From: Escherichia virus TH34
Sequence record: MT446407.1
Reading direction: 5' to 3' (one strand)
Length of the DNA stretch: 64,000 nt
Under the pieces are notes generated by a model. The model was not told the DNA's origin, did no database searches, and saw only the letters and a list, made by a program, of their open reading frames with translations. Both the position numbers and the translations under genes were made by a program. Shown here one piece after another: positions 36,518 to 57,389 of this stretch (position 1 is the stretch's first letter; every line of letters starts with the position of its first letter).

Positions 36518-36949
36518 ATGTCTGATAAAGTATTAGTAGCAACTTACGGCAGCTTGAGAAAAGGTCAACACAACCACGCTATCAATGCTCGTGCCGGTGG
36601 TGTGTCTATTGGTGAGGGTTGGACAGTGAACAACTGTAACCTGTATCAGTATTGCACAGCATACTTCCCAAGTGTGTCTCTGGAGCACGACAGCAATGGC
36701 AAGCCTGTTCGTGTGGAAGTATTTGAAACAACTCAAGCTGGTTTGGAAGGTCCGTATGACGGTCTGGAAGGTTATCGTGGTAAAGACAATCCATACACTT
36801 TCTACAATCGTACACTAATTCCAGTAGTGCTGGATAGTGGTGAAACTGTGGAAGCATGGATTTATCATATCGACGAAGAACAAGATGTTCTGGTTGAATC
36901 TGGCGACTGGACAGCGTATCTGGCAGGTGATCAGGATGACAGTAACTGA
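36518..36949 (+). CDS. gamma-glutamyl cyclotransferase-like (AIG2/GGCT fold) protein
   Basis: 143 aa; N-terminal ATYGSLRKGQHNH (YGSL motif) and downstream DGLEGY with a candidate catalytic Glu. Confidence 0.7.
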   Translation: MSDKVLVATYGSLRKGQHNHAINARAGGVSIGEGWTVNNCNLYQYCTAYFPSVSLEHDSNGKPVRVEVFETTQAGLEGPYDGLEGYRGKDNPYTFYNRTLIPVVLDSGETVEAWIYHIDEEQDVLVESGDWTAYLAGDQDDSN

Positions 36950-37142
36950 GCGACAGAAGCTGAGAAAGCTCGAGTCTGACTACTTAAAGTTACGGTGGAA
37001 GATTAACCGCTATGACAAGTTTGTCAGTATGCTTGACCGCAATAAACATTCTGAAGATTTTATCATGAGAACCCAATCAGCTTTACAGGGTTTTAAAAGT
37101 CTTCAAGATGATGTGTGGGAAGAAATACGTTCGTTTTATTGA
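36936..37142 (+). CDS. hypothetical small protein
   Basis: 68 aa from ATG 36936 with RBS aggtga. Confidence 0.35.
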   Translation: MTVTERQKLRKLESDYLKLRWKINRYDKFVSMLDRNKHSEDFIMRTQSALQGFKSLQDDVWEEIRSFY

Positions 37143-37178
37143 AGAAGTCTGCTCAAGGAATTCCAAGGAGGATAGAGC

Positions 37179-38969
37179 ATGTCAAAGATCATTTTAGGGG
37201 ATACAGGTTGTAAAGAATGTATCTCTCATGGTCGTGATAAGACCCACAATCACATGATTCTCTTCCGAAACGAAGAGTCCGGTGAAGAGTGGGGCAGTTG
37301 TAATCGTTGTGGTAGTTATGAAGTTTTCGAAAAGGGAACAACTCCTACACCGAATGAAAAGAAAGAACTATCCCCTGAAGAACTCCGAGAGATCTTAGAC
37401 GATTGCTTAGAGCTGCCTCAGGGTGAGCTTACTCGTCGTTTGATTCCTAAAGCTGTCTCTGAACGGTATGAATGCCGTATTGGTTTGAGTCAGACAGATG
37501 GGCAAACTCCTGATAGTTACTTCTTCCCTCGTGAACGTGATGGAAACATTGTTGGTTATGAAGTTAAGCTTCTAGACAGCAAGAAATTCTATTACATCGG
37601 CAGTGTTAAAGAAGCTGACCTATTCGGTATGGCTCAAGCACAACGCGGGGACGTGTACAACAAGAAGCTCTTCATCTTTGAAGACCCACTCTCTTGTATG
37701 TCTGGCTTCCATGTGCTCACTGCGTTCACGAACGCTACAAACATCAAACCTGCGTGTGTATCTCTACCGTTTGGTGCAGGTTCAATCTCTTCCGTTCTCT
37801 CACGTAACCGTGACTTCTTGAATGGTTTTGAGGAGATTGTGCTCTGCATGGACAATGATGATGCAGGTGAGATTGCATTAACTAAAGGTCGTGCATTATA
37901 TCCCCATGTTAAATTTGCTCGTATTCCGAAAGGAACCTTCACTTACAATGGTCAAGAGAAGGAAATCAAAGATGCAAATGACATGTTACTCGCTGGTCGA
38001 GGTCAAGAGCTATTCAACAATCTGAAATATTCAGCGAAGCGGGAATCACCTGCTGGTGCTGTTACTGTCTTTGATTGTTTAGAAGACGCTCTGAAGAAAG
38101 CGGAATGGGGTATTCCTTATCCGTGGAAAACTCTGAATGAAATGACCTTCGGCATTCGTTGGGGAGAGATGGTTGCAATCGGTGGTGGTGTTGGTTCAGG
38201 TAAAACCTTAATCGCACACGAACTGGTAGCATGGCTTTGCCTTGAGCATGGTTTTAATGGTGGTGGCTTCTTCTTGGAAGAGAAGGTAGGCATGTCTGTT
38301 AAAAACATTGCAGGTAAATCAGCATCTGTACCTTTCCACCGACCTGATGTTGAATATGAGGAATCTCAGCTACGTGACGAAGCACTCCGTTACGCTGACA
38401 AGTTCTTCTTGTATGACAACTTCGGACAGAATGAGTGGGATGATATTAAGCAGTGTATTCGCTTCTGGGTAGTTGAGAATCAGTGTAAGTTTATCATTCT
38501 TGATAACATCACTGCATTAGTTTCTCACCTAACTCCATCTGAGGTGAATACAGAAATCAGTAAGATTGCTTCAGAGCTTGCTGGTATGTGTAAGGAATTA
38601 GACTTCACTGCTTTTGTATTATCTCACTTGAATGCTCCGGCAGGTGGTGCTCCTCACGAAGAAGGTGGGCAGGTGAAAGAAGTTCAGTTCACTGGTTCAC
38701 GTTCACTGATGCGTTGGTGTCAGTGCATCATCGGTTTTGAGCGAGATAAGCAAGCGGATGGGTTAGGCAAGAACTTGTCAATCATACGACTTCTCAAGGA
38801 GCGTAACTACGGTCAGACAGGTGTTTGCTACACCAAGTATATCAATGAAACAGGTCGACTTGTAGAACGAGAAGATCACGAAGTTGATGAAGCTAATCCG
38901 TTTGTCTTGACCAATGGTGAGGATGCAGCTTCTCTGCTCACACAAGACGGGGAGGCACGACCTTGGTAA
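37179..38969 (+). CDS. DNA primase-helicase (T7 gp4-like)
   Basis: 596 aa; N-terminal Cys4 zinc ribbon (CKECISHG...CNRCG), TOPRIM-like [10 protein letters not shown], DnaB-type Walker [10 protein letters not shown]. Confidence 0.85.
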
Positions 38970-39511
38970 AGAAAATATTCGCCTTCGATATCGAGGGTGA
39001 TAATCTCTATGAGGGCATCCAAAATGTCTGGTGTATCTGGATATTTGATGTTCTTACAGGTGAACGGTGGGGGTATCGCCCTCACCAAATTGAAGAAGCT
39101 CTTCACAAACTGAAGGAAGCTGATATAGTTGTAGGACACAACATCATAGATTTTGACCTACCAGCTCTCTTTAAATTCTACTCTCATGTAATACCTTTCC
39201 ACTTCAATGTCTTTGATACACTTTGCCTGAGTCGTTATCTCAAGCCTGACCGTATTGGAGATAATCCAGAATATCCCAAAGGCGACCCTAGACATGGCCC
39301 TCGTGGTCATGGCCTCAAGCAATGGGGCGAATTTCTGGGTGAACTGAAGGGTGATTATGGTGAGCAGGAAGAAGCATGGGATGCATTCACTGAAGACATG
39401 TTCACATATTGTGAGCAAGACGTTAACTTAACAGTTAAGGTTTACATGTGTCTTTGCCAAATGGCAGGATTTGATTATAAGAATCCCCCATCTCTCAACT
39501 GGAAAATGTAG
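38963..39511 (+). CDS. stand-alone 3'-5' exonuclease (DnaQ/DEDD), probable proofreading subunit of a split family-A DNA polymerase
   Basis: 182 aa; Exo I FDIEGD, Exo [14 protein letters not shown], Exo III YCEQDV. Confidence 0.7.
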
Positions 39512-39513
39512 AA

Positions 39514-40950
39514 ATGATTAAGATTCCATTGTCTGAATTAAACCTTCAAGAAGGAGAAGCCCTCAGTGTAGGGCTTGACCTGATTCGTAATTTGATCAGA
39601 GATAACGTAGTCCCTGATGGTATCTATCCTGTTATTGCGGGTGGTGCTATCCGTGATACGTTCTTCCAAAATCGAACTCCGAATGACGTTGATATCTTCC
39701 TAGTTCAAGGAGGATTTCGTTGGAACACTCGTCAGGAAAACAGCCCTGCTAACGTGGGTAATGCTGCACTGTTCCTTGACAACTTCTTGTCTTGGACAGA
39801 GAGTAAAGGGCTTCAAACTACATCTCGCCTAGTTCAGCCTGTTAGTGGGACAAATTACGCTGAAGCACTTTTCACTTTCCAAGAGATTTTGGAAGTGGAG
39901 ATTGACGAAGTGAAGATTCAGATGATGATTAACCTCCCTCTGGATATGGATACTCTGAGAGGTCGCTTCCCTATGATTTGTCAAGGGTTTATGACTCTCG
40001 ATGATATGTATGTGTCGAACGAAGGTATGTTTGCAATGGCATATACTAATGATATCCCTGTGGTGACAAGTCGTGACATGAAGTATGTCCACAAAAAGTG
40101 GCCTGAAGCAACAGTTGCAGTTTACAGCAGTTCTACTGAGTATATGCACCTTGCAATGGGAGCTTTTGGTGAACCAGAAGTTCATCTGATCAGTGATTTA
40201 GTTGGGCCTATGGCTGGTGTAAACTTGTATCAGAATCAACGTCGCCACTACACCTTGAAGATGATGGAAACTGTATTAAATATTCCTCAGGAAGCGGGTC
40301 GTAACTATCTGGATGAAGAGGTTAACCTACAGACAGATTGGTCTAGTGAATTAACCACTATTGGTGTTGAAGCAATTACGCAGCCTTGGACTCCGGGAAC
40401 TGACAGACGTGACTCTTGGCAACAGACAAGATTCGCAGCACCTGCTACAGAGGCACCTCGTGATACTTTCACTGGTAGTTTTGGTAGTGCCCGTTCTTCT
40501 GGAATGGGTACTCGTACATGGCACGTCACTCATGATACAGGTGGAGTAACTGTTCGACCTGCTTCTTCTCCATCTATGGGTGATTTGCAGCGTTCCCGTC
40601 GTTCATGGGAAACAGTTAGCTCTGTTGTTCAGGGTCTACGTTCTAGTGATATAGAACGTGTAGAAGTTGGTGATTTGCCAACCCCTACAGAAGATCGGGT
40701 AGCAGCTATAGCGGCTCGTGAAGCTGCTCGTACTGGCTTTGCATCTTTAGCTAACGACGCTCGACCTGTTGGTCGTCGTAATGGTCTGGCTCATTCTAAC
40801 ACTGCACTTGGTGCAGAACTCCGAGCAACAGCTCGTGAATTAGTTGGTGAACTTGATAGTAACTTAGCAGGTGTTACGCTGACTCGTGAAACAGCTCGTA
40901 ACATGATTAACAATTTGACATCATCTGTACAAGGAAACAGAAACTCATGA
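39514..40950 (+). CDS. Pol-beta superfamily nucleotidyltransferase (CCA-adding / poly(A)-polymerase-like head) with low-complexity C-terminal half
   Basis: 478 aa; GGAIRD...DVD signature near N-terminus; C-terminal about 200 aa rich in S/T/R/A. Confidence 0.5.
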   Translation: MIKIPLSELNLQEGEALSVGLDLIRNLIRDNVVPDGIYPVIAGGAIRDTFFQNRTPNDVDIFLVQGGFRWNTRQENSPANVGNAALFLDNFLSWTESKGLQTTSRLVQPVSGTNYAEALFTFQEILEVEIDEVKIQMMINLPLDMDTLRGRFPMICQGFMTLDDMYVSNEGMFAMAYTNDIPVVTSRDMKYVHKKWPEATVAVYSSSTEYMHLAMGAFGEPEVHLISDLVGPMAGVNLYQNQRRHYTLKMMETVLNIPQEAGRNYLDEEVNLQTDWSSELTTIGVEAITQPWTPGTDRRDSWQQTRFAAPATEAPRDTFTGSFGSARSSGMGTRTWHVTHDTGGVTVRPASSPSMGDLQRSRRSWETVSSVVQGLRSSDIERVEVGDLPTPTEDRVAAIAAREAARTGFASLANDARPVGRRNGLAHSNTALGAELRATARELVGELDSNLAGVTLTRETARNMINNLTSSVQGNRNS

Positions 40951-41480
40951 GTCTTTTAGGTTCTCAAGAACTACACAACGTTATTGATAATGGCTTTTTA
41001 GATGCGGAGCATAAATATGTTAACGCTGCTAGCGTGGATATCCGTATTGGTGATACTATCCTTGTTGAAGAACAGGCTGACGGCATTGTTGACATTGATG
41101 CTAAAGAAAATCTCAAGTGGAAAGAAGTGAAAATCCCTGAAGATGGTATTGTCATCACTCCGGGACAATTCTTCTTAGCTCACTCAATGGAAGAGTTTAA
41201 CCTTCCAGATAACATCTCAAGTCTGTTTGTACTTCGCTCCTCAATGGCTCGTTGTGGTTTGAACCACTTACATGCTGGTTGGGCTGATGCAGGGTTTAAC
41301 AGCAGTAAGCTGACCTTTGAATTCCATAACGTTACCCACAACCACAGCTTACGAGTTCGTGCTGGGATGCGTGTTGGTCAGATGGTTATGTTTGAACACT
41401 CTCACGCTGGTGATGATTCCTATGCAGTGAAGGGTCGTTACAATGGCAGCAATGGGGTAGTTGCATCTAAAGGTGTATAA
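40947..41480 (+). CDS. dCTP deaminase / dUTPase-superfamily protein
   Basis: 177 aa; N-terminal LGSQELHNVIDNGFL and SVDIRIG pattern resembling Dcd-type enzymes. Confidence 0.5.
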   Translation: MSLLGSQELHNVIDNGFLDAEHKYVNAASVDIRIGDTILVEEQADGIVDIDAKENLKWKEVKIPEDGIVITPGQFFLAHSMEEFNLPDNISSLFVLRSSMARCGLNHLHAGWADAGFNSSKLTFEFHNVTHNHSLRVRAGMRVGQMVMFEHSHAGDDSYAVKGRYNGSNGVVASKGV

Positions 41481-41485
41481 CCAAG

Positions 41486-41677
41486 ATGAAAGAAGAAAAA
41501 GCTACTTACTTAGCTATTGGTTTTGTAGTTGGGGCATTTGCTATGGGAGTATTTATATCTAACGTTGGTCCAGATTCTAGCGTTAAGATTGAGACGAGAA
41601 GAGCCGCTTGTGAAATAAATCTCCCTCGTAATCAGGTCTGTGTAATGCAGTTTGTCCCTAAATCGGTTGACAGATAA
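41486..41677 (+). CDS. small membrane protein
   Basis: 63 aa with one TM segment (YLAIGFVVGAFAMGVFI). Confidence 0.4.
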   Translation: MKEEKATYLAIGFVVGAFAMGVFISNVGPDSSVKIETRRAACEINLPRNQVCVMQFVPKSVDR

Positions 41678-41889
41678 TGGAGTTTGGAACAATGAAAAGA
41701 CGTTGGGTAGTTCGTATTCACTGGAGCAGTGGTACAGAGTCAATGGGTATTAGGAATACCCGTCAAGAAGCTCGCGCTCATAAGAAGTTCTTGTTAAGTT
41801 GTGAAAGCACAATTAATAAGATCACTATCCACAAAGCTCAAGACTTTAAATCAGGTCGTTTCTATATCAGCGGAAAGGTACATTACTAA
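41677..41889 (+). CDS. TRQEAR-family small protein, paralog 1
   Basis: 70 aa; W..R..W....G....NTRQEARAHKK ... ending ...Y; shared with 41889 and 43752 ORFs. Confidence 0.45.
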   Translation: MEFGTMKRRWVVRIHWSSGTESMGIRNTRQEARAHKKFLLSCESTINKITIHKAQDFKSGRFYISGKVHY

Positions 41890-42104
41890 TGGATAAATTA
41901 TGGGCAGTTCGTACTAAATGGGCTAACAAAGCTCTTGGTGGTGATTGTATTCAATTATTCAACACAAGACAAGAGGCTCGTCTTGCTAAGAAAACTATAA
42001 AAGCTACAAAAGCTTTAGGAATCGCTGAAAAGGTGGAGATTCATCGTTGGATTGAAAATATCCAGAACAGTGCTGGATTCATATCCAGCAAGGTTTATTA
42101 CTAG
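41889..42104 (+). CDS. TRQEAR-family small protein, paralog 2
   Basis: 71 aa; WAVRTKW...NTRQEARLAKK. Confidence 0.45.
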   Translation: MDKLWAVRTKWANKALGGDCIQLFNTRQEARLAKKTIKATKALGIAEKVEIHRWIENIQNSAGFISSKVYY

Positions 42105-42156
42105 TTGGTAGTAGATATGATAACTCTCAAATGTATATACAGTATAAGAATATTGT

Positions 42157-42504
42157 ATGAAACAGGAGAGAGTTATGTTAGATTTGAGTAAAGTGGCCCC
42201 GCCATCTGAAGAGATTAGCAAAGCTAAAGTTATGCAGCAGTTCTATCATCGTGATATGCTTGGTCGTTATATCAAGAATCGTGATGTTGTTGCATGGTCT
42301 ATTGGAAATCAAGGTTATCTTCTCAAAGTGTTGCAAGTTACTGGCTCAACAGCCAAGCGAGTCAAAGTCTATGACCCTGAAATGGGGCGTTCTAAGTCTG
42401 TAGACCCACAGAATTGCATTGTTATTACCCAGCAGGTCATGGACAACATTGCTCGTAACGTAGCCAATTCAACCAATTTAGAAGGAGAGACTCCTAATGC
42501 ATAA
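42157..42504 (+). CDS. hypothetical protein
   Basis: 115-aa ORF. Confidence 0.4.
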   Translation: MKQERVMLDLSKVAPPSEEISKAKVMQQFYHRDMLGRYIKNRDVVAWSIGNQGYLLKVLQVTGSTAKRVKVYDPEMGRSKSVDPQNCIVITQQVMDNIARNVANSTNLEGETPNA

Positions 42505-43063
42505 TAATGTCTTCGACTTACCTGAACTAACACGAGTGGGTTCTAGTAACCCATTCTCTACAACTGACTCCTCTATCTCTCGTCTTGAGGGAATGAATAA
42601 ACTGATCAGCGGTAACAGTCTAGAGCACATCCTATGCGGTGTGCAGGCTAACCTTGAGCTTCTACACATCAAAGCAAAGAATTACCACTGGAACGTCTCT
42701 GGAGCTGGTTTCCAAGGTGTTCATGGTATGTTCGATGAATTAGAAGACTATGCTCGTGAAACAGGAGACCGAGTAGCTGAGCGAATGCGTTATCACTGTA
42801 TCAAAGTGGATGCAACAGCTAGTAGCTATCTTAGTTGTGCTTGGTTCAGAGAAGGTAGTGCTGATCTCGACATGGACGGTATGCTTTCCGACATGTGCAT
42901 GACTCTGATGTGTATCATTGAAAAGATGGACGAGTTTGATTCAGACTTGTGCACTTATCCAGTAGACCAGAGTATGCTTCAAGAAATTAATGAAGGTCTT
43001 GGCAAGTTCTGTTACTTCGTCAAGAGCAACATGTCCCACTCTAGTGGCGATGTGTCTTACTAA
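42497..43063 (+). CDS. Dps/ferritin-like protein
   Basis: 188 aa; LELLHIKAKNYHWNVSGAGFQGVHGMFDELEDYARETGDRVAERM closely follows the Dps helix pattern (HW..G..F...H..FDE....D..AER). Confidence 0.55.
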   Translation: MHNNVFDLPELTRVGSSNPFSTTDSSISRLEGMNKLISGNSLEHILCGVQANLELLHIKAKNYHWNVSGAGFQGVHGMFDELEDYARETGDRVAERMRYHCIKVDATASSYLSCAWFREGSADLDMDGMLSDMCMTLMCIIEKMDEFDSDLCTYPVDQSMLQEINEGLGKFCYFVKSNMSHSSGDVSY

Positions 43064-43084
43064 TCAAACCTCCGCCCTGTCTCT

Positions 43085-43306
43085 TTGTTTAAGAGGTGGG
43101 GCGAACTTCTTTATAAGGATGTGAATATGTTTTCAGCAATCGTATGGTCTGTGTGGGCAATTCTTGTTGGTGGTATTGTTTATCTGGCTCAAAAGCAAAT
43201 GCTTAAAGAAAATCCAAATGATGCCAAACCTATTAAACATGGTAGCATTGCTCTGGTAGTTTTCTCTGTTGTTATTCCTTTCCTTCTCCACCTGTGGACT
43301 GCATAA
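43085..43306 (+). CDS. small membrane protein (2 TM), holin-like topology
   Basis: 73 aa with two hydrophobic helices separated by a charged loop. Confidence 0.4.
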   Translation: MFKRWGELLYKDVNMFSAIVWSVWAILVGGIVYLAQKQMLKENPNDAKPIKHGSIALVVFSVVIPFLLHLWTA

Positions 43307-43483
43307 TGAAATTAAACCTCCCTGAAGAATTACAAGCACATGCCATTATCATTAGTGGCTGTGTGATGGGTCTTGGTCAGACAAAGAAGATTGCTCATGA
43401 CTTAGCAAAAGGTCAGTATAAATCTTTTATTGTTGTTCCTGCTACCCAGCGTCATATCAACCTGTTTATTAACAAGGAATAGA

Positions 43484-43759
43484 ATGAGTAAAGTAATTAA
43501 GTTTTATAGTAATTCATGTGCTCCATGTGCAGCTATGGCTCCTGTGTTTAAGAAGGTTGTGGCTGACTACAGTGTAGAAGTTGAAGAAGTAAATATCTCT
43601 GAAGGTGATGGTCGAGAGCGAGCCATTGAATATGGTGTTCGCAGTATCCCAGCCTTTGTCGTCCCTGATAAGAATAGTGGCGCTCATTACAGCTTATCAG
43701 GTATTCAAACTGAATCTAATCTCCGTGCATTTTTAGACACGGCTCTGAAAGGTGTTTAA
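43484..43759 (+). CDS. thioredoxin-like protein
   Basis: about 91 aa from ATG 43484 (RBS aaggaa); CAPC active-site motif in FYSNSCAPCAAMAP. Confidence 0.6.
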   Translation: MSKVIKFYSNSCAPCAAMAPVFKKVVADYSVEVEEVNISEGDGRERAIEYGVRSIPAFVVPDKNSGAHYSLSGIQTESNLRAFLDTALKGV

Positions 43760-43976
43760 TATGGAAAAGAAACCTTGGACTACTTTTTGGGTAGTTAAGT
43801 GGTTTAATTTTGATAGCACAATCCCTAGCTTCTCCTCATACACAACACGGAGAGAGGCTCGCCGCTTTAAGCGAGCTTTAAAAATTGCTAACACTGGCGC
43901 TTCTAAGATTACAATTCAGAAAGGGATTGAAACAGAAAGTGGAAGCAACATGATTTATAAAAAGATTCATTATTAA
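43752..43976 (+). CDS. TRQEAR-family small protein, paralog 3
   Basis: 74 aa; WVVKWF...TTRREARRFKR. Confidence 0.4.
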   Translation: MFNMEKKPWTTFWVVKWFNFDSTIPSFSSYTTRREARRFKRALKIANTGASKITIQKGIETESGSNMIYKKIHY

Positions 43977-43980
43977 GGAA

Positions 43981-44454
43981 GTGATGTTATACGGTAATTT
44001 GGAATACAACCCTGAAACTGGAGACTTCTTTAGGAATAGCAAAAAGCTAGGAGGAAAGAGGAGCAAGTATGCAACCCTTCGGTTTCAAGGTAAAGTAAGA
44101 AAAGCACATGTGGTTGCTTGGTTTATTTATTATGGGGAGTGGCCTACTTCTCAAATAGACCATGAAGATGGTAATAAGAGGAACAACTCAATCTCTAATC
44201 TTCGATTAGTAGACACCTCTACTAACTGTCACAATCAGTTTGGTGCAAGATCTTCAAACATACAATCAGGTTTTCAAGGGGTTAAAGTTGTTAAGTACAA
44301 ATCAGGCACTATTCGATATAGAGCAGTTATTTGTATTAATGGCAAAGATATACACCTAGGGATGTATGGAACTCCTGAAGAAGCACATCAAGTCTATATA
44401 GAACGGAAAAAGGAACTTTTACGTGAACGAACAACTAACAGCAACATTGATTGA
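43981..44454 (+). CDS. HNH homing endonuclease
   Basis: 157 aa; H-x-(D/E)-G-(N/D)-x-x-N-N motif DHEDGNKRNNSISNLRLV. Confidence 0.65.
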   Translation: MMLYGNLEYNPETGDFFRNSKKLGGKRSKYATLRFQGKVRKAHVVAWFIYYGEWPTSQIDHEDGNKRNNSISNLRLVDTSTNCHNQFGARSSNIQSGFQGVKVVKYKSGTIRYRAVICINGKDIHLGMYGTPEEAHQVYIERKKELLRERTTNSNID

Positions 44455-45073
44455 ACATATGGGAAGCGATAAATCCGTTGTGAATGCGGCAAGGGTTTCT
44501 TTTGGTGTTGTACGAGAAGGTGATTTAAATGAACGTGATGAAAGACTCATTAAATTCTTGGCAAGGGAAAAACACTGTACACCATTTCGTCATCCAACAA
44601 TTAGCTTCCGATGCAAAGCGCCAATCGCAATTGCACGACAACTTGGAAAACATCAAGTGGGGTTCTCGTGGAACGAAATGTCCCGGCGGTATAAAGATGG
44701 AGCAGTTGAACTCTTCATCCCTAAAGAGATTTTTGAAAGACCTTCGGACCTCCATGCAGGTGCAGGGAATCTCCTCACCACAGGAGCACAAAACTCTGCA
44801 CTAGTTCTGATTAACCGAGCATATGAAACAGCTCTTGAGTCGTACGATGAATTGATTAAGTTCATTGCTCCAGAACAAGCTCGATTCGTATTACCTCAGG
44901 GTATGATCACTGAGTGGGTATGGACTGGTTCTCTATATGGTTGGTCAGAGTTGTGTCGTCAGCGACTGTCAGACCATGCTCAGTATGAGGTGCGTTTGTT
45001 CGCATCAACAATTGATGAAGAGCTTCGTAAAATATATCCAATCTCTTGGGATGCATTACGTGAAGCCCACTAA
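44423..45073 (+). CDS. ThyX-like (flavin-dependent thymidylate synthase family) protein with divergent signature
   Basis: 216 aa; H..PF.H...SF......IARQL followed by GKHQ in the position of the canonical RHR, then SWNEMSRRY (ThyX S-x-x-x-S-x-R-Y-like). Confidence 0.5.
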   Translation: MNEQLTATLIEHMGSDKSVVNAARVSFGVVREGDLNERDERLIKFLAREKHCTPFRHPTISFRCKAPIAIARQLGKHQVGFSWNEMSRRYKDGAVELFIPKEIFERPSDLHAGAGNLLTTGAQNSALVLINRAYETALESYDELIKFIAPEQARFVLPQGMITEWVWTGSLYGWSELCRQRLSDHAQYEVRLFASTIDEELRKIYPISWDALREAH

Positions 45074-45245
45074 AGTATGTAGCTTCTGTCGAAAGCAGAA
45101 GCTTCTTATCAATTTCAAACTGAACGAGGAAACAGGTTTGGGTCATGCTTTTTGTCATGATTGCAGGCACTACCTCGAACAGAAGCAATACATAAACTGG
45201 TTGCATTACTACAACCCTAACATCTATAAGCACAAGGTTATCTAA

Positions 45246-45725
45246 ATGAAAGCTATTTTTGAAGGAAGGGAGTATGATGTTCCTGATTGGGTTAAATACA
45301 TAGCCCGTGACTATGATAATCTGGTTTGGGCATATGGAGACGTAAGACCTGTGTTTAATGAAAACACTGGTAGTTGGTCTAACATGTCAAAATTACCAGG
45401 ATTTATTCGGGCACTTGGCTCTTCTAGTCGTCCTGTAGGTTTCGCTGCTGACTCACTTGTTGAGGTTGGTGTTGAAAAGGAAATAGACAAGCCAGAAACA
45501 ATTTGGGTTCTATCTTCAAGCACCCCAATTAAAGGAAGTCGTGGGATTTCCTTCTATGTTGAGCCTGTCGCTTACTTCAAAAACAAGCCGACCATTAATG
45601 CTCTGATGTTAAAGAACATTCCTTATTCACAAGTTGCTACTTTGTTAGATAACGGAACAGTGCTTGTTGAGAATAATGGGACAAATCAAATCTTTTATGA
45701 TTTAGAAGAAAGGGTTTTAGAATGA
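45246..45725 (+). CDS. hypothetical protein
   Basis: 159-aa ORF. Confidence 0.45.
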   Translation: MKAIFEGREYDVPDWVKYIARDYDNLVWAYGDVRPVFNENTGSWSNMSKLPGFIRALGSSSRPVGFAADSLVEVGVEKEIDKPETIWVLSSSTPIKGSRGISFYVEPVAYFKNKPTINALMLKNIPYSQVATLLDNGTVLVENNGTNQIFYDLEERVLE

Positions 45726-45934
45726 AAGGTTTAGTGTTAGGAAAACACCGTTTTACTTTCCGCATCTCCGACAGGAACCCATACCCTACCAAGATTGAAC
45801 CTTACGAGATCATCTCTGAAGTGTTTATCTGGCCTTGGCAGAGTATCTATGATGTTGCTCTTAAGTCCAAGAAGAAGCTGATACCTGTTGGTATTTGGGC
45901 TGATGTTGATTTAGTTAAAATCGAAAAGGTTTAA
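45722..45934 (+). CDS. hypothetical small protein
   Basis: 70-aa ORF. Confidence 0.35.
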   Translation: MKGLVLGKHRFTFRISDRNPYPTKIEPYEIISEVFIWPWQSIYDVALKSKKKLIPVGIWADVDLVKIEKV

Positions 45935-45935
45935 A

Positions 45936-46166
45936 ATGAAAGTTTGGATATTGACACGAGAGATTAACCAGTATGACCAAGATGGTGCATATTTTGAAGC
46001 AGTCTTTCTGAATAAACCAACAGCTGAGCAATTAGCAGAAGCTGGTGTATCTTCCTATTGTATTGACTATACGTTAAAACAAACCCACTCTGATGGCTCT
46101 TGTGGTGGTCGGTCTGAACACATGGAAGATGAATGGTGGCTTTTAGAAGAGATTGAGGTTAAATAA
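45936..46166 (+). CDS. hypothetical small protein
   Basis: 76-aa ORF. Confidence 0.35.
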   Translation: MKVWILTREINQYDQDGAYFEAVFLNKPTAEQLAEAGVSSYCIDYTLKQTHSDGSCGGRSEHMEDEWWLLEEIEVK

Positions 46167-46487
46167 ATGATCAACGATAATACATTTAGGACTGGTAACG
46201 GAAACGAGATTAGTCCTGCTGAAGTGATTAAACGACACAGAACGCAGATGCTTATCCATTCCTATTTGTATTATTGGTTGGATGACCCAATCTGGTCTGA
46301 TGACAAATGGCAACAAGTGGCTGATGACTTAACCACTTTACAAGAGATGTATCCTGAGCCTATTGAATTCTTTGATTCAGAGTTCAATGGATGGAATGGC
46401 TCTACTGGTATGCACCTCCCTCATGACGAGCGTATAGCTTGTATGGCTACCGAAGTATATCGTTTACATAAGGACAAATCTATCTGA
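46167..46487 (+). CDS. stand-alone NAD-dependent DNA ligase domain-Ia-like protein
   Basis: 106 aa; LIHSYLYYWLDDPIWSDDKWQQVADDLTTLQEMYPEP resembles the LigA N-terminal Ia segment (YY.LD.P.ISD.EYD.L...L..LE...PE); no adenylation domain. Confidence 0.45.
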   Translation: MINDNTFRTGNGNEISPAEVIKRHRTQMLIHSYLYYWLDDPIWSDDKWQQVADDLTTLQEMYPEPIEFFDSEFNGWNGSTGMHLPHDERIACMATEVYRLHKDKSI

Positions 46488-46665
46488 AATGTTTTAAATG
46501 TGAATCCACACTTCTCCATCTGGACTCGAAAGTAATACGAGAGCTTGCTAAAGGCTCTCCGACGAAAGGGAAGAATAAGAAATTTGTCGAAGTTAAGGTT
46601 ACAGGTACTCATTGTTCAGAGTGTAAATCCTGTAGCTACACGTATGAAGAACTTGGAGGTAGAAA

Positions 46666-47403
46666 ATGAATCGCAGAGAAACTCGTAGAGAAGCACGGAA
46701 AGCAGCTCGTCGTGGTGAACAGGTGACTAATAAAGGTAAACGTGAGTATCAAGAAGTTGTTCTCGCTAAGCCTGTAGTTCCTCAGAATCAGTTTCAATCT
46801 GAACTGCTCAATGCTATCAAGACTAAACAAGTAGTCTTTACGGATGCTCCTGCTGGATGTGGTAAGACTTATGTTATCACAACAACTGTTATTGATGCTC
46901 TGAAAAGTGGGAAGATTCAAAAGATCATCCTAAGCCGTCCTGCTGTTGGTATGGGTAATTCACTTGGGTTACTTCCCGGTGGGTTGCGTGAGAAGTTCGA
47001 ACCATACCTGATGCCAATCGTTGATGTTATCACTCAGCGTTACGGTAAAGGCTTCTACGAGTGTCAAATTGGTAATGGTAACATTGAGTTCGTACCTCTG
47101 GAATACCTCCGTGGTCGTTCATTCAATGACGCTATTGTGATTGTTGATGAGTTCCAGAACACTACTCCTGATGAAGCATATTCAATCATGACCCGTCTTG
47201 GTGAAACCTCTCAGATGTTCTGTATGGGTGATACTAACCAGCATGACATGCGTGGTGAGAGTGGTTTGGAATGGGCTACTGACTTCATTGATCGTCATGA
47301 CTTATTTGAGTTTGCTGCTTTGGTTGACGGTGAGTCAGATGATATTGTTCGTTCAGGTTTCTGTAAAGCTATTGTTAAAGCAATGGAATCTGAAAAATCC
47401 TAA
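46666..47403 (+). CDS. phoH: PhoH-like ATPase
   Basis: 245 aa; Walker A DAPAGCGKTYV and ILSRPAVGMGNSLGLLPGGLREKFEPYL matching the PhoH core. Confidence 0.85.
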   Translation: MNRRETRREARKAARRGEQVTNKGKREYQEVVLAKPVVPQNQFQSELLNAIKTKQVVFTDAPAGCGKTYVITTTVIDALKSGKIQKIILSRPAVGMGNSLGLLPGGLREKFEPYLMPIVDVITQRYGKGFYECQIGNGNIEFVPLEYLRGRSFNDAIVIVDEFQNTTPDEAYSIMTRLGETSQMFCMGDTNQHDMRGESGLEWATDFIDRHDLFEFAALVDGESDDIVRSGFCKAIVKAMESEKS

Positions 47404-47469
47404 ACATAATGTATACTCCTTAGTGTACACTGATATATTAAGGAGTTATGATGACTGATAAGGCAAAAC

Positions 47470-47763
47470 GTGATTATGCACAAGAAAGACGTACCGCAAT
47501 CAAACGTGGGGAGACAGGTGTTGGTAGCAAGAGCGGAGATGCTCAGCGCCACCGTGCACGTCGCATCGTTGAAAAGCGCGATGGAAAAGCTGCTGTCCGA
47601 GGTAAAGATGTTGGACATAAACGATCAATCAAGTCGGGAGGTTCTAATGCGTCAAGTAACTTACGTGTTGAATCAGTCTCTGGAAATCGCTCGAACGGCG
47701 GCAAAAGTGGAGATCGTGCTGGAAAATCAGCAGGAGGAGTCAAATCGAGAAAAGGCGCTCTAA
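47470..47763 (+). CDS. hypothetical helical protein (alternative overlapping frame 47448-47771 encodes a low-complexity basic peptide)
   Basis: two overlapping ORFs; the 97-aa frame has more protein-like composition. Confidence 0.3.
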   Translation: MIMHKKDVPQSNVGRQVLVARAEMLSATVHVASLKSAMEKLLSEVKMLDINDQSSREVLMRQVTYVLNQSLEIARTAAKVEIVLENQQEESNREKAL

Positions 47764-47767
47764 GTCA

Positions 47768-48262
47768 ATGATTCCGATTTCCGACTACTTGTCATACGAC
47801 CTGGATACTGTTTTATTGATTTTTACCGAATCTAGCTCTAAAGGTAAGAAATGGAATAAATCACATCCGGGAAAAGTGGCAGGGGCTGTTGATGAAAAAG
47901 GGTATATCAGAGTTTACTTTGAAGAGAGGAGATGGAAAGCTCACAGACTTATAGCTTCTGTGCTCATACCTAACCCTGAAAATAAACCACAAATTAACCA
48001 CATCAATGGTAACAAAAGTGATAATAGGTTAGAGAACCTAGAGTGGGTCACTGGTCATGAAAATATGCAACATGCTTTTTCAACAGGTCTTAATGTTGGT
48101 AAAGAGAGGGATGCTAATGGAATGACTAAAATCAACACATTGGATGTGGAGAAGATCAAGAGTTTATATGTTAAAGGCTCTACCACTCATGGAACAAGAG
48201 CACTAGGTAAGATGTTTGGCGTAAGTCACACAGCTATCCGACATGCTTTAAGCTCAAGTTAA
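47768..48262 (+). CDS. HNH homing endonuclease with AP2-like DNA-binding region
   Basis: 164 aa; NHINGNKSDNRLENLEWVTGHENMQH. Confidence 0.65.
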   Translation: MIPISDYLSYDLDTVLLIFTESSSKGKKWNKSHPGKVAGAVDEKGYIRVYFEERRWKAHRLIASVLIPNPENKPQINHINGNKSDNRLENLEWVTGHENMQHAFSTGLNVGKERDANGMTKINTLDVEKIKSLYVKGSTTHGTRALGKMFGVSHTAIRHALSSS

Positions 48263-48267
48263 TATAA

Positions 48268-48297
48268 GGCTACCCATTTCGGGTGGCCTTTTCTTTT
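48268..48297 (+). terminator. rho-independent terminator
   Basis: ggctaccc-atttc-gggtggcc followed by ttttctttta. Confidence 0.55.
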
Positions 48298-48318
48298 ATA
48301 TAATCTAAGGTAATAAAT

Positions 48319-48570
48319 ATGTCTAAAGTAACTTATATCACTGTAACTGATTTCTTTCCTTTTCTGGATGTAACTGAAAGCTACACCTTCCCCGTGAGCA
48401 ATGTTACAAGCTCTGTTGAGATGATTCAATTTAACCCAACAACAGCTCGTACTAACGTGGCTCTTCGTGGTCCTGATGGCAAGTTCATCTCCTTCCGCGA
48501 TAAGGCTGTTCCTAAGCGTATTGCTAAGTCTATTGAAAATCTGAAACCTTTCCCTAACTTTGGTGCATAA
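48319..48570 (+). CDS. small protein, paralog pair member 1
   Basis: 83 aa; shares TARTNV.(L/I)RG.DGKF(I/L)S(F/Y)RD ... NLKPFP with the next ORF. Confidence 0.45.
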   Translation: MSKVTYITVTDFFPFLDVTESYTFPVSNVTSSVEMIQFNPTTARTNVALRGPDGKFISFRDKAVPKRIAKSIENLKPFPNFGA

Positions 48571-48829
48571 TATGAAGATTAGCTTAATCCAAATTCGTGA
48601 TCATCTCTTTAACGGTGACGCTCAGACTCATGATTACAAGGTTAATCAAGGACAACACCCTACCAATCATCTTATTGGAGGGATTTCTCTATTACCTAAT
48701 AAAACAGCACGGACGAATGTAATGATTCGTGGTAAGGATGGTAAATTCCTTTCTTATCGTGATCTTGAAATCTGTGCTGATGTTCGTACAGCTATGAACA
48801 ATCTGAAACCTTTCCCGACAGTGGAGTAA
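48560..48829 (+). CDS. small protein, paralog pair member 2
   Basis: 89 aa; same conserved core. Confidence 0.45.
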   Translation: MVHNMKISLIQIRDHLFNGDAQTHDYKVNQGQHPTNHLIGGISLLPNKTARTNVMIRGKDGKFLSYRDLEICADVRTAMNNLKPFPTVE

Positions 48830-48832
48830 GTT

Positions 48833-49186
48833 ATGCCAGTACCTCAACGCCTAGAACGTCACTGCGTTCTCAAATGGGACAATATTCATGACAACCTCTC
48901 CATTCAAGAGTTTCGTCAGTTTATTGAATTAACAGCGAAGATTAACCGAAACCAACCAGCTCGAAACTTTGTAGTGGTTAGTGATAAGTATCCTGAGTTG
49001 TATGAGCAGGTGTGGGGTATGAAACTTGCACAGGTTCAGAGAAACAGCAATGAACGAAGAGAAACTCGTAGACAGCGAGCAGAAGATATTCCAGCAGTCT
49101 TTTATGTGGATGAATTAACGGAATCCTATGAACAGTTAGATATTGTCGAGGATAACCAAGCGTTCACTGATTTAATATACCAATAA
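48833..49186 (+). CDS. hypothetical protein
   Basis: 117-aa ORF directly upstream of the polymerase gene. Confidence 0.4.
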   Translation: MPVPQRLERHCVLKWDNIHDNLSIQEFRQFIELTAKINRNQPARNFVVVSDKYPELYEQVWGMKLAQVQRNSNERRETRRQRAEDIPAVFYVDELTESYEQLDIVEDNQAFTDLIYQ

Positions 49187-49199
49187 TTATAAGGAGTGG

Positions 49200-51047
49200 G
49201 TGATGGATAACCCTGATAAGTTACCTTTCATAACGGAGATGACAGTCGCTGATATAATCTCAAAGCAGGCGAAGCATGGCGTCAACTTCCACAGAAGAAA
49301 CGCTCGGTGGTTTGTTCACCTTCTCAAAGAGATTATTGTCAATATTGATAAAGAACTGATTCCTCTCCTCCCCAAAATGCGGGTGGATGGTTCAACTTAT
49401 TCGAAACCTTTTAAGAAGTCAGGTTCTTTACAGAAGTGGCCTCAGCTCTATTGTGACAGAGTTGGTCTTAAAAGGGAAGATATCGGTGGGGCGTTTACTT
49501 GCGTTGAGTATGTAGACTTCGACCCATCGAAAGATGCACGTATCAAAGAAGCCTTGATGGACGAAGGCTTTATTCCTCCAGAGTGGAACACATCCAAGAA
49601 ACCTTGGAATACTTACGAAATCCGTAAAGCGATGAAGAAGTATGGCACATATGCTGCTTGGTATTCTGCTTGGATGCGGGGAAACGCTAAAGAAAAACAG
49701 ACAGCTGAGATGATTGACGCTGACATTCGTCGGTTCTTGGATAAACACTTCCGTTATCACACTGTCAATTACATGAAAGCGTACGTTAGTGGTTTAGGCT
49801 TGAATCCGAACAGGAAGAAGCCTGTAACCTTTGATGAAATTAAGAAAGCTTTAGCCATGTCAAACAAGTGGCCTACAGCTCCTACAAACCTCGAGGAGAC
49901 GCTTGAAGAAGGTCTTGGGGGTGAGCTAGGGGGTGTGGGAGGTTTGCTTAAGAGACGTGTTGTAGCGGCTCACAGGCTTGGCTTGATTAATGGTCTTATA
50001 GACAAGGAACGAGAAGATGGTAAGTTGTCCGCCGAAGCTAATAGCTGCGCTACTCCGACATTTCGTTTTAAACACCGTATTGTTGTTAATATTCCTTCTC
50101 GCGGTTTGTTTGGTCACGAGTGCCGCAGTCTATTTCAGTCTGACTGTACCTCAAGTGATAGTAATCACAATCCTATCATCATTACCAACCATATCCCTGA
50201 TGGGTGTTACGTACGAAAAGGTACAAACACTATCTACGAAGTGGGAAAACCGGGCAAGAAAGACAAACCGATAGGTGCTCTGAAATATTACATACCTTCT
50301 GGTCATGAAGTATTTCTTGGTTATGATGGTTCAGGGTTAGAACTGCGTATGCTGGCTCACTACCTTATTAAAGAGTGTCGTGAGATGTTGGCAGAGGCAG
50401 AACAAGAGAATAACCCAGCTAAGAAACGAGAAGCTGAACGCGGTTTAGCATCTGCCGTATTGTACAGAGATATTCTCTTACAGGGTGATATTCACTCCCA
50501 TAACCAGAAACTTGCTGGCTTGCCTACCCGTGATAATGCTAAGACGTTTATCTACGCATTCAACTACGGAGCTGGTGATGCTAAGCTAGGTAGTATTGTT
50601 GGTGGTGGGGCTGATGAAGGTTCTATAATGAGAGCTAGATTCTTAGCAGAGAACCCTTGTATTGCAATCCTTATTGAACGTATGACAGAGAAAGCACAAA
50701 GTGGATACATCTACGGTGTTGACGGTCGTCGTATTACAATGAGACGTGACGGTACAGGAAAGGTCATGACACACAAAGCCTTAAATACGCTCTTACAGAG
50801 CGCTGGGGCGATTGTTATGAAGTATGCAATGCTATTCCTCAATAAATGGATTGAGCGTGATGGTGTTCGTTGTGCGAAGGTTATCGACATGCATGATGAA
50901 GGTCAGTTCACTGTACATCGTGATGATGTTAACAAACTTCGCACTCTCACTGAGGAATGTGTTCGTAAAGCGGGTGAATACCTCAAGATGGAATGCCCTC
51001 TTGCATCAGATTGTAAGATTGGACTGAATTGGCAGCATACGCACTAA
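49200..51047 (+). CDS. family-A DNA polymerase, polymerase domain only
   Basis: 615 aa; motif A LGYDGSGLELRMLAHY, motif B RDNAKTFIYAFNYGAG, motif C MHDEGQF; no exonuclease motifs in this ORF. Confidence 0.8.
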   Translation: MMDNPDKLPFITEMTVADIISKQAKHGVNFHRRNARWFVHLLKEIIVNIDKELIPLLPKMRVDGSTYSKPFKKSGSLQKWPQLYCDRVGLKREDIGGAFTCVEYVDFDPSKDARIKEALMDEGFIPPEWNTSKKPWNTYEIRKAMKKYGTYAAWYSAWMRGNAKEKQTAEMIDADIRRFLDKHFRYHTVNYMKAYVSGLGLNPNRKKPVTFDEIKKALAMSNKWPTAPTNLEETLEEGLGGELGGVGGLLKRRVVAAHRLGLINGLIDKEREDGKLSAEANSCATPTFRFKHRIVVNIPSRGLFGHECRSLFQSDCTSSDSNHNPIIITNHIPDGCYVRKGTNTIYEVGKPGKKDKPIGALKYYIPSGHEVFLGYDGSGLELRMLAHYLIKECREMLAEAEQENNPAKKREAERGLASAVLYRDILLQGDIHSHNQKLAGLPTRDNAKTFIYAFNYGAGDAKLGSIVGGGADEGSIMRARFLAENPCIAILIERMTEKAQSGYIYGVDGRRITMRRDGTGKVMTHKALNTLLQSAGAIVMKYAMLFLNKWIERDGVRCAKVIDMHDEGQFTVHRDDVNKLRTLTEECVRKAGEYLKMECPLASDCKIGLNWQHTH

Positions 51048-51398
51048 TTGAAAATGAACTAGTCTTATTGATTAGTTCTTTTTAAGGAGACAAGGAAGTG
51101 GAAGAAGTAAAAAGTTCTGAATGGTGCTTGAAGCAACAAAAGCTCGCACAGGATGAAGGTCGTTTTGAAGACGCTAAAGCTTATGGTGAATTATTTCAAA
51201 CATGGGTAGAACGAGAGGAGAAAGCTAAATGATGGACCTGATTCGTAAACCCGCCCCAAAGTGGAACATCTATTACCAAGATTCCACTGGTAAATTTCAT
51301 AACCAACTGGTTTATACTGATGAAGAGCGAGATGAAGTCGTTGCTCAGATTGAAGCAGATGGTGGTACAGTTCTCAAAATCTACGAAAGGAATTAATA

Positions 51399-51641: not shown

Positions 51642-51668
51642 GCTACCTTCGGGTGGCTTTTCTTGTCT
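51640..51668 (+). terminator. rho-independent terminator
   Basis: aagctacc-ttcg-ggtggctt followed by ttcttg. Confidence 0.55.
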
Positions 51669-55979: not shown

Positions 55980-56575
55980 TGAGTAAACCATTAGTAGTAA
56001 TTCTGAATGGACCACCGGGTTGTGGTAAAGATACAATCGCTAATGCTTGGTTAGAGAAGACCGTCGGTAACACTGAGTTTAGGCCGCATGTAAAGGCTTT
56101 TAAGGAGCCTATGTATCGAGTGGCTGCTGCTGCATTAGGACTTCCTCTTTATGAGTTCATGGAGCTATACAACGATCGTGAGTGGAAAGAATATAGCCGT
56201 CCTGAATGGGGCGGTAAGACAGTTCGAGATTTAATGATTGCGACTAGTGAGAACTACCTGAAACCAATGTTTGGTGACACCTGCATGGGTAAGCTTGCTG
56301 TTAGCAGTATTCAACAACGCATCCCAACACAGAATGATGTTATTGTATTCTCTGATGGTGGATTTAAAGCAGAAGTTGAAGAACTGGAAAAACATTTCCA
56401 TGTTCGAGTAATTCAGATTCATCGTGATGGCTGTACTTTTGAAGGAGACTCTCGTTCCTATATTGAAGGCGCGAACCTTTCAACCTACCTTCTCTTTAAT
56501 GATTGTTCTATAGAAGAGGCGGTGGAGTATTTAGAATACAGTATTGCACAGACACGGAGAGATCTCTATGCCTGA
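55979..56575 (+). CDS. P-loop kinase (deoxynucleoside monophosphate kinase-like)
   Basis: 198 aa; N-terminal Walker A VVILNGPPGCGKDT. Confidence 0.5.
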   Translation: MSKPLVVILNGPPGCGKDTIANAWLEKTVGNTEFRPHVKAFKEPMYRVAAAALGLPLYEFMELYNDREWKEYSRPEWGGKTVRDLMIATSENYLKPMFGDTCMGKLAVSSIQQRIPTQNDVIVFSDGGFKAEVEELEKHFHVRVIQIHRDGCTFEGDSRSYIEGANLSTYLLFNDCSIEEAVEYLEYSIAQTRRDLYA

Positions 56576-57389
56576 TGTAATCTATCCTGAAGTAGCAATT
56601 GTGGATGCAGATGTTCTTAGGTATGAAGTTGGTGCTCTTACACAAGAGCATCCTTTCCTAGACACAGGTCGTGTTCCAGTTGATTATGGATTCTTGATTG
56701 AACGTCTCCAACATAAGATTGATGTAATCATCTCAAGAACTGGTTGTGAAAGAACAATCTTTTATTTCAGCGAAGGTGGTAACTTCCGCTTCGATGTTGC
56801 CAAGCAGCAAGGTTATAAAGCTAACCGACCTCCGGGAGAAAGGCCACATCACTGGCAGAACGTTAGTGATTATATCAAAGAACATTACCAGTATGTTGAA
56901 GTGTTTGGCAGAGAAGCAGATGATGCACTCGCTGAACGACAGCGTATAGAAAAGAACACAATCATCTGTACTCGTGATAAGGATTTGTTAATCACTCCCG
57001 GATGGCATTACCGCTGGGCTTGCGGTGAACGACAGAAAGAAGTACCCCCTCATTACGTATCAGAGGAAGTAGCATGGCAGAACTTCTTCTATCAGATGTT
57101 GATTGGAGACAGTACAGATAACATCCCCGGATGTGGTGAGAAAGTTGAAATGATGTGGGGCGGTAACTTAGTTATGCGTCGTAAGGGTATTGGTAGCAAA
57201 GCTGCTATCAAACTTATTGAGAAGGTATTCGATAAGTGGACTCTTTATCATATTATACGAATGGAATACTATAAGAGGTTCGAGGAAGAAGCAGAAGCTA
57301 AGATGTTAGAAAATGCTCGATTGCTCTTCGTTGGACAAGCTGAAGGCGACCTCTTTGATTGGTCGTGGTTAGATAAATCTTGGGAATAA
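56568..57389 (+). CDS. 5'-3' exonuclease / flap endonuclease (T7 gp6-like)
   Basis: YKANRPP, READDALA, ICTRDKDL and H3TH signature GDSTDNIPG. Confidence 0.8.
   Translation: MPDVIYPEVAIVDADVLRYEVGALTQEHPFLDTGRVPVDYGFLIERLQHKIDVIISRTGCERTIFYFSEGGNFRFDVAKQQGYKANRPPGERPHHWQNVSDYIKEHYQYVEVFGREADDALAERQRIEKNTIICTRDKDLLITPGWHYRWACGERQKEVPPHYVSEEVAWQNFFYQMLIGDSTDNIPGCGEKVEMMWGGNLVMRRKGIGSKAAIKLIEKVFDKWTLYHIIRMEYYKRFEEEAEAKMLENARLLFVGQAEGDLFDWSWLDKSWE

Follow-up and report, generated by a model that had tools for sequence, protein, structure and literature searches.

In phage T7 the family-A DNA polymerase (PolA) gp5 is a single polypeptide that holds both the 3'-5' proofreading exonuclease and the polymerase. 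In Escherichia virus TH34 (record MT446407.1; the whole 64,000-nt stretch analysed here is called the window), by contrast, the exonuclease is encoded by a separate open reading frame (ORF) that lies 9,691 nt upstream of the polymerase ORF. The T7-type family-A DNA polymerase of the phage is probably composed of two subunits, the separately encoded halves, which would reassemble non-covalently into a gp5-like proofreading enzyme. A two-gene polymerase has already been described and annotated for the whole phage group (phiEco32, LUZ24, Kuravirus-like). The report of separate polymerase and exonuclease genes in phiEco32 is credited to Savalia et al. 2008 in a passage of PMC3517423, and separate genes were also noted for the LUZ24-like phages, LUZ24 itself having an intron in the polymerase gene (PMC3517423). 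For the Kuravirus-like group the polymerase and the 5'-3' and 3'-5' exonuclease subunits have been named as separately encoded (PMC9965538, 2023). In the GenBank/RefSeq records of phages Bas88, ECBP2 and Ab22 the exonuclease ORF is labelled 'DNA polymerase exonuclease subunit', a name that PHROGs families bear as well, and in the records of Bas88 and ECBP2 the distant ORF is labelled 'DNA polymerase'. As a discovery the two-gene polymerase matters little, since it has been published and is routinely annotated.

In E. coli Pol III, a family-C enzyme with an unrelated interface, polymerase and proofreading reside in separate gene products, alpha and epsilon, which assemble. The PolA of S-SBP1-like cyanopodoviruses, like that of TH34, is T7-like and is broken into two genes between the exonuclease and polymerase domains. 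However, the S-SBP1 halves are adjacent and overlapping, are set apart by a 1-nt frameshift, and result from a split which has been called recent (PMC10201439), whereas the halves in the window, with 24 ORFs between them, appear to go back to an older one. AlphaFold2 (AF2) predicts that the S-SBP1 halves reassemble like the unsplit enzyme (PMC10201439). The S-SBP1 fission was called the first in PolAs (Czernecki et al., NAR 2023, PMC10201439), a claim which overlooks the earlier reports on phiEco32 and LUZ24; the clade considered here, which falls outside the cases treated in that paper, has the older split and the more dispersed halves. Outside family A, the split polymerase of PhiKZ (DNAP-N and DNAP-C) forms a stable 1:1 complex according to cryo-electron microscopy (PMC13648687), a functional analogy to the window system, but one from family B with an unrelated interface. 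The analogy of split PolA to archaeal PolD DP1/DP2 has also been drawn (PMC10201439), although PolD is a family-D enzyme whose interface is unrelated to that of the window polymerase.

Within the phiEco32/Kuravirus-like group (including 7-11, Privateer, Vp_R1 and BUCT695) the system is the same as in the window. The differences from phiEco32-like relatives are at strain level only: the spacer of the window contains two additional HNH genes, and its polymerase gene is unbroken, whereas that of ECBP2 and BUCT695 is interrupted by an endonuclease insertion. The LUZ24-like phages (Bruynoghevirus: LUZ24, PaP3, tf and Ab22; 'DNA polymerase part I / part II') have the same two-gene architecture with the same break point. 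The Ab22 polymerase was 41% identical over window residues 10-615 and the LUZ24-like exonucleases were about 33-34% identical. With 545 amino acids (aa) the Ab22 polymerase is shorter than the window protein of 614 aa, part of the thumb insertion being absent. With T7 gp5 the window proteins have in common the DEDDy residues, motifs A, B and C, the tyrosine of motif B, the C-terminal His and the place downstream of the primase-helicase.

Two proteins corresponding to T7 gp5

The ORF directly after the primase-helicase gene encodes a protein of 182 aa. An earlier note on this DNA, made from the sequence alone, had ascribed to it all three DEDD exonuclease motifs and no polymerase motifs, and this description was borne out: Exo I, II and III were located (Table 1), the Pfam profile DNA_pol_A_exo1 (PF01612) scored 28.1 bits against a gathering score of 23.6, and no polymerase motifs were present in the ORF. 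The protein matched PHROG families 403 (E 9e-39) and 38876 (E 7e-66), 'DNA polymerase exonuclease subunit', and its best match in the PDB by phmmer was T7 gp5. The AF2 model (predicted local distance difference test, pLDDT, 93.2; predicted template modelling score, pTM, 0.89) showed an RNase H-like fold superposing on the proofreading domain of PolA. When the model was compared with PDB structures by Foldseek, the best 27 matches were all T7 gp5, with E values from 8e-11 to 3.5e-8 and TM-scores (query) of 0.61-0.75. The next class, exonuclease domains of family-B polymerases, followed at E values of about 1e-4, i.e. about 3,000-fold or more weaker. Membership of an unrelated RNase family, for which the earlier note had left room, is ruled out by these gp5-only top structural matches.

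Conservation was assessed across 34 stand-alone homologues; they had 163-195 aa and were 38-97% identical to the window protein. Residues D9, E11, H59, N60, D65, Y149 and D153 were unchanged in all of them. The C-terminal tail GFDxxNPPxLxW was strongly conserved in this stand-alone family; its counterpart in the alignment with gp5 is the linker (FPPEIDF) just ahead of the polymerase domain. Invariant catalytic residues together with a conserved tail indicate that the exonuclease has been held under purifying selection as an active enzyme, and so has the stretch that in gp5 adjoins the polymerase.

The only polymerase domain had been placed in an ORF of 615 aa without exonuclease motifs. This assignment stands except for the start of the gene. 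Translation almost certainly begins at ATG 49203, one codon past the GTG at 49200, because AAGGAG lies 7 nt ahead of the ATG and the relatives are annotated likewise; the protein then has 614 aa. Its sole Pfam match was DNA_pol_A (aa 362-612; 85.7 bits, cutoff 34.3). Motifs A, B and C were unchanged across 60 polymerase-only homologues of 524-618 aa, which were aligned end to end. A tyrosine at position B3 of motif B is a stated trait of PolA cluster #5, the T7-like cluster (PMC10201439). T7 gp5 was the best PDB sequence match of the ORF, and gp5 chains made up the best 27 PDB matches of its AF2 model (pLDDT 90.4, pTM 0.78) in Foldseek. The C-terminal residue is His in the window polymerase as in T7 gp5, where this residue, His704, is functionally important.

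The possibility that the polymerase ORF would turn out to carry a functional exonuclease domain on proper alignment was not borne out: none was detected in it by Pfam (no PF01612 match) or by profile alignment to gp5. Up to about residue 270 the AF2 model consisted mainly of a helical thumb with three short strands and had no RNase H-like sheet. A hidden or degenerate exonuclease remnant at the N-terminus is therefore rejected, the more so as the profile alignment starts at gp5 204. The window polymerase has about 170 residues more than the corresponding part of gp5. They lie in insertions of about 100 residues in the thumb (about aa 135-250), about 45 before motif A (about 315-370) and about 25 after it (about 391-415). 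In a check of the thioredoxin-binding loop of the thumb, residues of about 53-134 gave a weak BLASTP alignment to gp5 283-362 (E 2e-5); this region was ordered in the AF2 model.

Domain boundaries were mapped, as the earlier note had proposed, by alignment to T7 gp5, for which the two family profiles (34 exonucleases; 60 polymerases) were used with hhalign. Residues 5-181 of the exonuclease corresponded to gp5 1-199 (probability 99.6%, E 9e-25) and residues 2-614 of the polymerase to gp5 204-704 (probability 100%, E 1e-53). At the level of sequence profiles both matches lie far beyond chance, and by these alignments the two proteins tile gp5 completely, with nothing missing or duplicated. The break falls in the short, surface-exposed linker between the domains (...FPPEIDFT/DVGY/TTFW..., gp5 about 199-204). 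Against phrog_17, a profile of fused polymerases, the exonuclease covered positions 670-826 and the polymerase positions 837-1233.

This fit leaves no room for intein halves, because the ORFs tile gp5 without extra residues at the junction. Rejoining of the halves into one chain by a split intein, trans-splicing or ribosomal bypass had to be considered, since split inteins and introns occur in phage polymerase genes and the relatives have HNH insertions there, but no point in its support was found. Compared with gp5, neither terminus carries additional residues. Both genes come with a ribosome-binding site and a stop codon of their own, and the 24 same-strand ORFs in between are ordinary conserved genes. 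A polymerase gene interrupted by a split intein or intron is rejected on the lack of extra sequence at the break. A sequencing or assembly artefact is rejected as well, given that about 98 phages, each sequenced independently, have the same arrangement and that it recurs in distant genera. Explanations of this kind are almost certainly wrong.

In Ab22 the C-terminus of the exonuclease (..TVDWLKSE) and the N-terminus of the polymerase (VDWRKSLF..) both hold a segment matching T7 FWSESL (L003 6546-7055 and 8983-10620). To judge from these residues, the repeated segment looks like the scar of a short duplication or overlap at the fission point.

The two genes are inherited together. When positions 37,000-52,000 were compared with phage records by megablast, 98 records matched, nearly all of them podophages of E. 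coli or Shigella of the phiEco32/Kuravirus-like type (Gordonclarkvirinae). The top matches were Escherichia phage StefiGeyer_Bas88 (96.0% identity, 92% covered) and ECBP2 (93.9%); DNA identity of the window to these and others was 90-96%, and Escherichia virus TH42 had 99.5-99.8% protein identity to the exonuclease and polymerase ORFs. Among 98 related phage records the exonuclease was present in 97 and the polymerase in 98 at an identity of at least 60%.

It might be thought that the exonuclease is a free-standing nuclease without stable polymerase binding, which would edit released mismatched ends in trans or serve in recombination, in primer or end processing or in the breakdown of host DNA. 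Its gene does lie 9.7 kb from that of the polymerase and is apparently coupled to the helicase instead, but it co-occurs one-to-one with a polymerase that has no exonuclease. The weaker structural matches include free-standing DEDD nucleases that serve other purposes, such as Exo I and a diDNase, whereas the closest relatives in both sequence and structure are gp5-type proofreading domains only. While the confident and compact AF2 fold of the lone protein means that it may be stable by itself, the conserved tail matches the gp5 linker, and the stability of PolAs is known to depend structurally on the exonuclease domain (Czernecki et al., PMC10201439). We consider a free nuclease unlikely.

Table 1. 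Features of the TH34 window related to the two polymerase genes
Feature	Position	Strand	Evidence and remarks
Primase-helicase, T7 gp4-like	37179..38969	+	Pfam DnaB_C above cutoff; Toprim_2 sub-threshold (18.9 vs 22.1 bits)
Stand-alone 3'-5' proofreading exonuclease subunit, DEDDy, 182 aa, TTG start	38963..39511	+	Pfam PF01612, hhalign, AF2, Foldseek, PHROG
Exo I motif FDIEGD (aa 8-13; D9, E11)	38984..39001	+	Motif located; D9, E11 invariant
Exo II motif GHNIIDFD (aa 58-65; N60, D65)	39134..39157	+	H59, N60, D65 invariant
Exo III motif YCEQD (aa 149-153; Y149, D153)	39407..39421	+	Y149, D153 invariant
Cargo, 24 same-strand ORFs	39514..49186	+	ORF list, Pfam and PHROG matches; except for indels, same order as in Bas88 and ECBP2
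Phage thioredoxin, CAPC active site	43484..43759	+	Pfam Thioredoxin E 1.9e-12; PHROG 22
HNH_3 + AP2 homing-type endonuclease	43981..44454	+	Pfam E 7e-14; 442-nt insertion vs Bas88
HNH_3 endonuclease	47768..48262	+	Pfam E 4e-10; 507-nt insertion vs Bas88, about 480-510 nt vs Bas88/ECBP2
Polymerase-only subunit, 614 aa	49203..51047	+	Pfam DNA_pol_A, hhalign, AF2, Foldseek; AAGGAG before ATG
Polymerase motif A DGSGLELR (D375)	50325..50348	+	D375, E380, R382 invariant
Polymerase motif B RDNAKTFIYAFNYG (Y451 = T7 Y526 equivalent)	50529..50570	+	R443, K447, Y451, Y455, G456 invariant
Polymerase motif C HDE (H564, D565, E566)	50892..50900	+	Invariant
5'-3' (FEN/gp6-like) exonuclease, separate gene	56544..57389	+	Weak Pfam 5_3_exonuc_N and 5_3_exonuc, both below gathering cutoffs

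Gene order and age of the split

The window and its relatives share the order primase-helicase, exonuclease, cargo and then, downstream on the same strand, a polymerase-only gene. In the window, Bas88, ECBP2, Ab22 and BUCT695 a stand-alone exonuclease gene for about 165-195 aa came directly after the primase-helicase gene and overlapped it. In the window the junction ...GGAGGCACGACCTTGGTAA puts TTG 38963 inside the last helicase codons, with GGAGG 7 nt ahead of the TTG. These signals suggest that the exonuclease would be translated from the TTG in a manner coupled to the helicase. Ab22 also has the upstream order of the window, namely ATP-grasp, gamma-glutamyl cyclotransferase (GGACT), primase-helicase and exonuclease. 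The upstream ATP-grasp gene ('S6 glutaminyl transferase') and the gamma-glutamyl cyclotransferase gene were common to Bas88, Ab22 and BUCT695.

The length of the spacer between the two halves varied. It was 1.9 kb with 7 small ORFs in the LUZ24-like Pseudomonas phage Ab22, 6.2 kb in Aeromonas phage BUCT695, 8.9 kb in Bas88, 9.0 kb in ECBP2 and 9.7 kb with 24 ORFs in TH34. Because the same gene order is found in LUZ24-like phages and BUCT695, the fission appears to be old and the gap to have grown. In a simple neighbour-joining tree of the polymerase domain (Kimura distances, rooted on T7) the long polymerase-only forms, phiEco32-like and LUZ24-like, formed one clade in 169 of 200 bootstraps. 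As far as gene order and this tree can tell, the split predates the divergence of the phiEco32-like and LUZ24-like phages.

Relatives outside this clade illustrate other arrangements. A 45-kb contig encodes a primase-helicase, a ligase and then a fused exonuclease-polymerase of 618 aa (P0151), and in T7 three small genes lie between gp4 and gp5. A short split lineage was represented by contig L008, in which an exonuclease of 147 aa (profile E 2e-49) and a polymerase-only gene are separated by one endonuclease gene of 91 aa. The product of the latter (1324-1599, contig SRR29270393_1924898) was of the Endo VII/HNH type (PHROG 3322, E 8.5e-29) and had no Pfam match. L008 shows how such a split could begin, with a mobile gene inserting at the linker. 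The contig that carries P0143 shows the same pattern: the helicase gene is followed by ORFs of 61, 176 and 92 aa, the 176-aa ORF being a candidate exonuclease, and then by a polymerase-only gene.

The position of the exonuclease gene invites a further explanation, namely that the protein is carried by the primase-helicase as an editor shared by the replisome, loosely like the proofreading subunit in a holoenzyme. Overlap of the helicase stop with the exonuclease start, which is seen in the window, Ab22 and BUCT695, suggests coupled translation and matched amounts of the two proteins. The adjacency is, however, more simply a leftover of the ancestral gp4-gp5 order, and in L008 a phosphoesterase gene lies between those of the helicase and the exonuclease. 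As no result here favours a helicase-exonuclease interface, it is very unlikely that the helicase is the partner.

The earlier note had offered proofreading in trans and a split by gene insertion as alternatives. They are not exclusive, and both probably apply, because the break is in the inter-domain linker, the exonuclease is at the head of the slot held by gp5 in T7, and the gap consists of variable cargo (1.9, 6.2 or 9.7 kb). Gene insertion is plausible in view of the linker break and the variable cargo; the part that the note had implied for the HNH genes has to be dropped, those genes being recent indels. On the simplest history, a gp5-like gene located downstream of the helicase would have been split long ago, and cargo would have collected in the gap afterwards. 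We infer the following order of events. The ancestral gene downstream of the primase-helicase would have broken in the solvent-exposed linker between exonuclease and polymerase, and the exonuclease half would have stayed attached to the helicase gene. Genes for nucleotide metabolism and mobile genes would then have accumulated between the halves, up to the present 9.7 kb. The series of spacers, from one endonuclease gene through 1.9 and 6.2 to 9.7 kb, illustrates how a fission site turns into a landing zone for cargo.

Probable reassembly of the two subunits

A two-subunit enzyme is indicated by the exact tiling of gp5, by the conservation of catalytic and linker residues, by the one-to-one co-occurrence of the two genes and by the precedents of S-SBP1 and PhiKZ. 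From this we infer that the two proteins would associate physically and proofread together. The polymerase would be translated from its own strong ribosome-binding site, and exonuclease and polymerase would dock through the interface that the exonuclease forms with thumb and palm in T7 gp5. In an enzyme of this form, a primer end with a mismatch would be passed from the active site of the polymerase to the DEDDy site of the exonuclease.

Several points weigh against this two-subunit reading or against the single old fission that goes with it. The insertions in the polymerase relative to gp5 could alter the exonuclease/polymerase interface. Equal amounts of exonuclease and polymerase are not guaranteed, because translation of the exonuclease appears to be coupled to the helicase and begins at a weak TTG start. 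Of 200 bootstraps of the simple neighbour-joining tree, 103 placed the short split lineage of L008 among the fused forms and 42 placed it in the phiEco32/LUZ24-like clade, so that the number of independent fission events is uncertain. Finally, biochemical or structural data on the complex of this clade were not found in the searchable literature, and biochemical proof of assembly and proofreading by its dispersed halves has apparently not yet been published.

The separation of the proofreader might even be exploited by the phage. The amounts of exonuclease and polymerase could be adjusted independently of each other, or their ratio could shift as infection proceeds, and fidelity or the balance of strand displacement against idling would shift with it. 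The phage thioredoxin could then be the third, processivity subunit of a three-part gp5-like enzyme. The idea stems from the difference between the weak, helicase-coupled TTG of the exonuclease and the strong ribosome-binding site that the polymerase has of its own, and we think it rather improbable. T7 uses a host protein as thioredoxin processivity factor, whereas the window phage encodes its own thioredoxin (91 aa). A role as processivity factor has been proposed for the thioredoxin homologue of the related phage Privateer (PMC7881722); by analogy the window protein might be a partner of the polymerase, but this is speculative. A T7-type proofreading subunit that is naturally detachable could be a handy tool for studying or tuning fidelity.

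The intervening cargo and neighbouring genes

From the exonuclease stop to the polymerase ATG there are 9,691 nt with 24 tightly tiled ORFs on the + strand. The earlier note had counted about 20 genes with two HNH endonucleases among them; the two HNH_3 genes were recovered. The cargo includes genes for a nucleotidyltransferase, a dCTP deaminase, a ferritin/Dps-like protein, thioredoxin, ThyX, an NAD-ligase Ia domain and PhoH. Compared with Bas88, both HNH genes are clean insertions, and ECBP2 lacks the second one too. On the strength of these comparisons both are recent arrivals, and they are rejected as the cause of the split. A third HNH_3 paralogue lies at 57578-58030, outside the spacer, and like the first of the spacer genes it also has an AP2 domain.

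The gene directly 3' of the exonuclease (39514-40950) encodes the 'nucleotidyltransferase' of 478 aa, which matched PHROG 12715 (E 4e-155) and had no Pfam match. Its head carries GGxxRD...DxD, and its long C-terminal half is rich in Ser, Arg and Thr; BUCT695 is without this gene at this position. Of an NAD-dependent DNA ligase, the ORF at 46167-46487 (106 aa) encodes no more than the N-terminal Ia domain, which binds NAD+ (Pfam Nlig-Ia, E 8e-34); its counterparts in relatives are called 'DNA ligase', for which 106 aa is far too short. Two families of paralogues of unknown function were found in the spacer. The first (41677-41889, 41889-42104 and 43752-43976) consists of proteins of about 70 aa which are 32-37% identical and all end in ..K[VI][HY]Y, and the second is a tandem pair (48319-48570 and 48560-48829) with a C-terminal core that is 55% identical.

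Transcription signals were scanned for between 36 and 52 kb. There were 23 promoter-like sites against 32 expected from shuffles, a scan too unspecific to decide on a single exonuclease-polymerase transcript. The same scan gave 17 terminator-like sites against 10.6 expected; the strongest hairpins on the + strand, at 43073 and 48266, are both inside the spacer.

The polymerase gene of the window is uninterrupted. In that of ECBP2, 607 nt which include an HNH gene are inserted precisely ahead of motif C (HDE), at a place which corresponds to 50894/50895 (codon 563/564) in the window. In BUCT695 and many metagenomic relatives the first polymerase fragment has about 437-460 aa and ends around the end of motif B. 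Endonuclease-bearing insertions in the polymerase genes of relatives fall at the most conserved motifs (L002 14724-15308; L004 24096-24872). Directly 3' of the polymerase gene, Bas88 (hypothetical protein Bas88_0040) and ECBP2 have a segment of 345 nt which is absent from the window (51048-51052).

The separate gene for a 5'-3' exonuclease has an 'exonuclease' annotated at the matching place in Bas88. In T7 the 5'-3' exonuclease is likewise a gene of its own, so this gene is context only.

The counterpart of the primase-helicase is labelled 'DNA primase/helicase' in the Bas88 and ECBP2 records. In the window the protein ends in ...DGEARPW, with an aromatic last residue (38920-38969), and the helicase of L008 (1-414) ends in EEEEDVKYEF. 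These aromatic ends recall the tail of T7 gp4, which is acidic, terminates in Phe and binds gp5. Upstream of the primase-helicase the ATP-grasp (RimK-like) and gamma-glutamyl cyclotransferase genes occupy positions 34760-36949 of the window. The pair is kept in LUZ24-like phages, BUCT695 and the contig that carries P0143 and travels with the replication block of the split polymerase.

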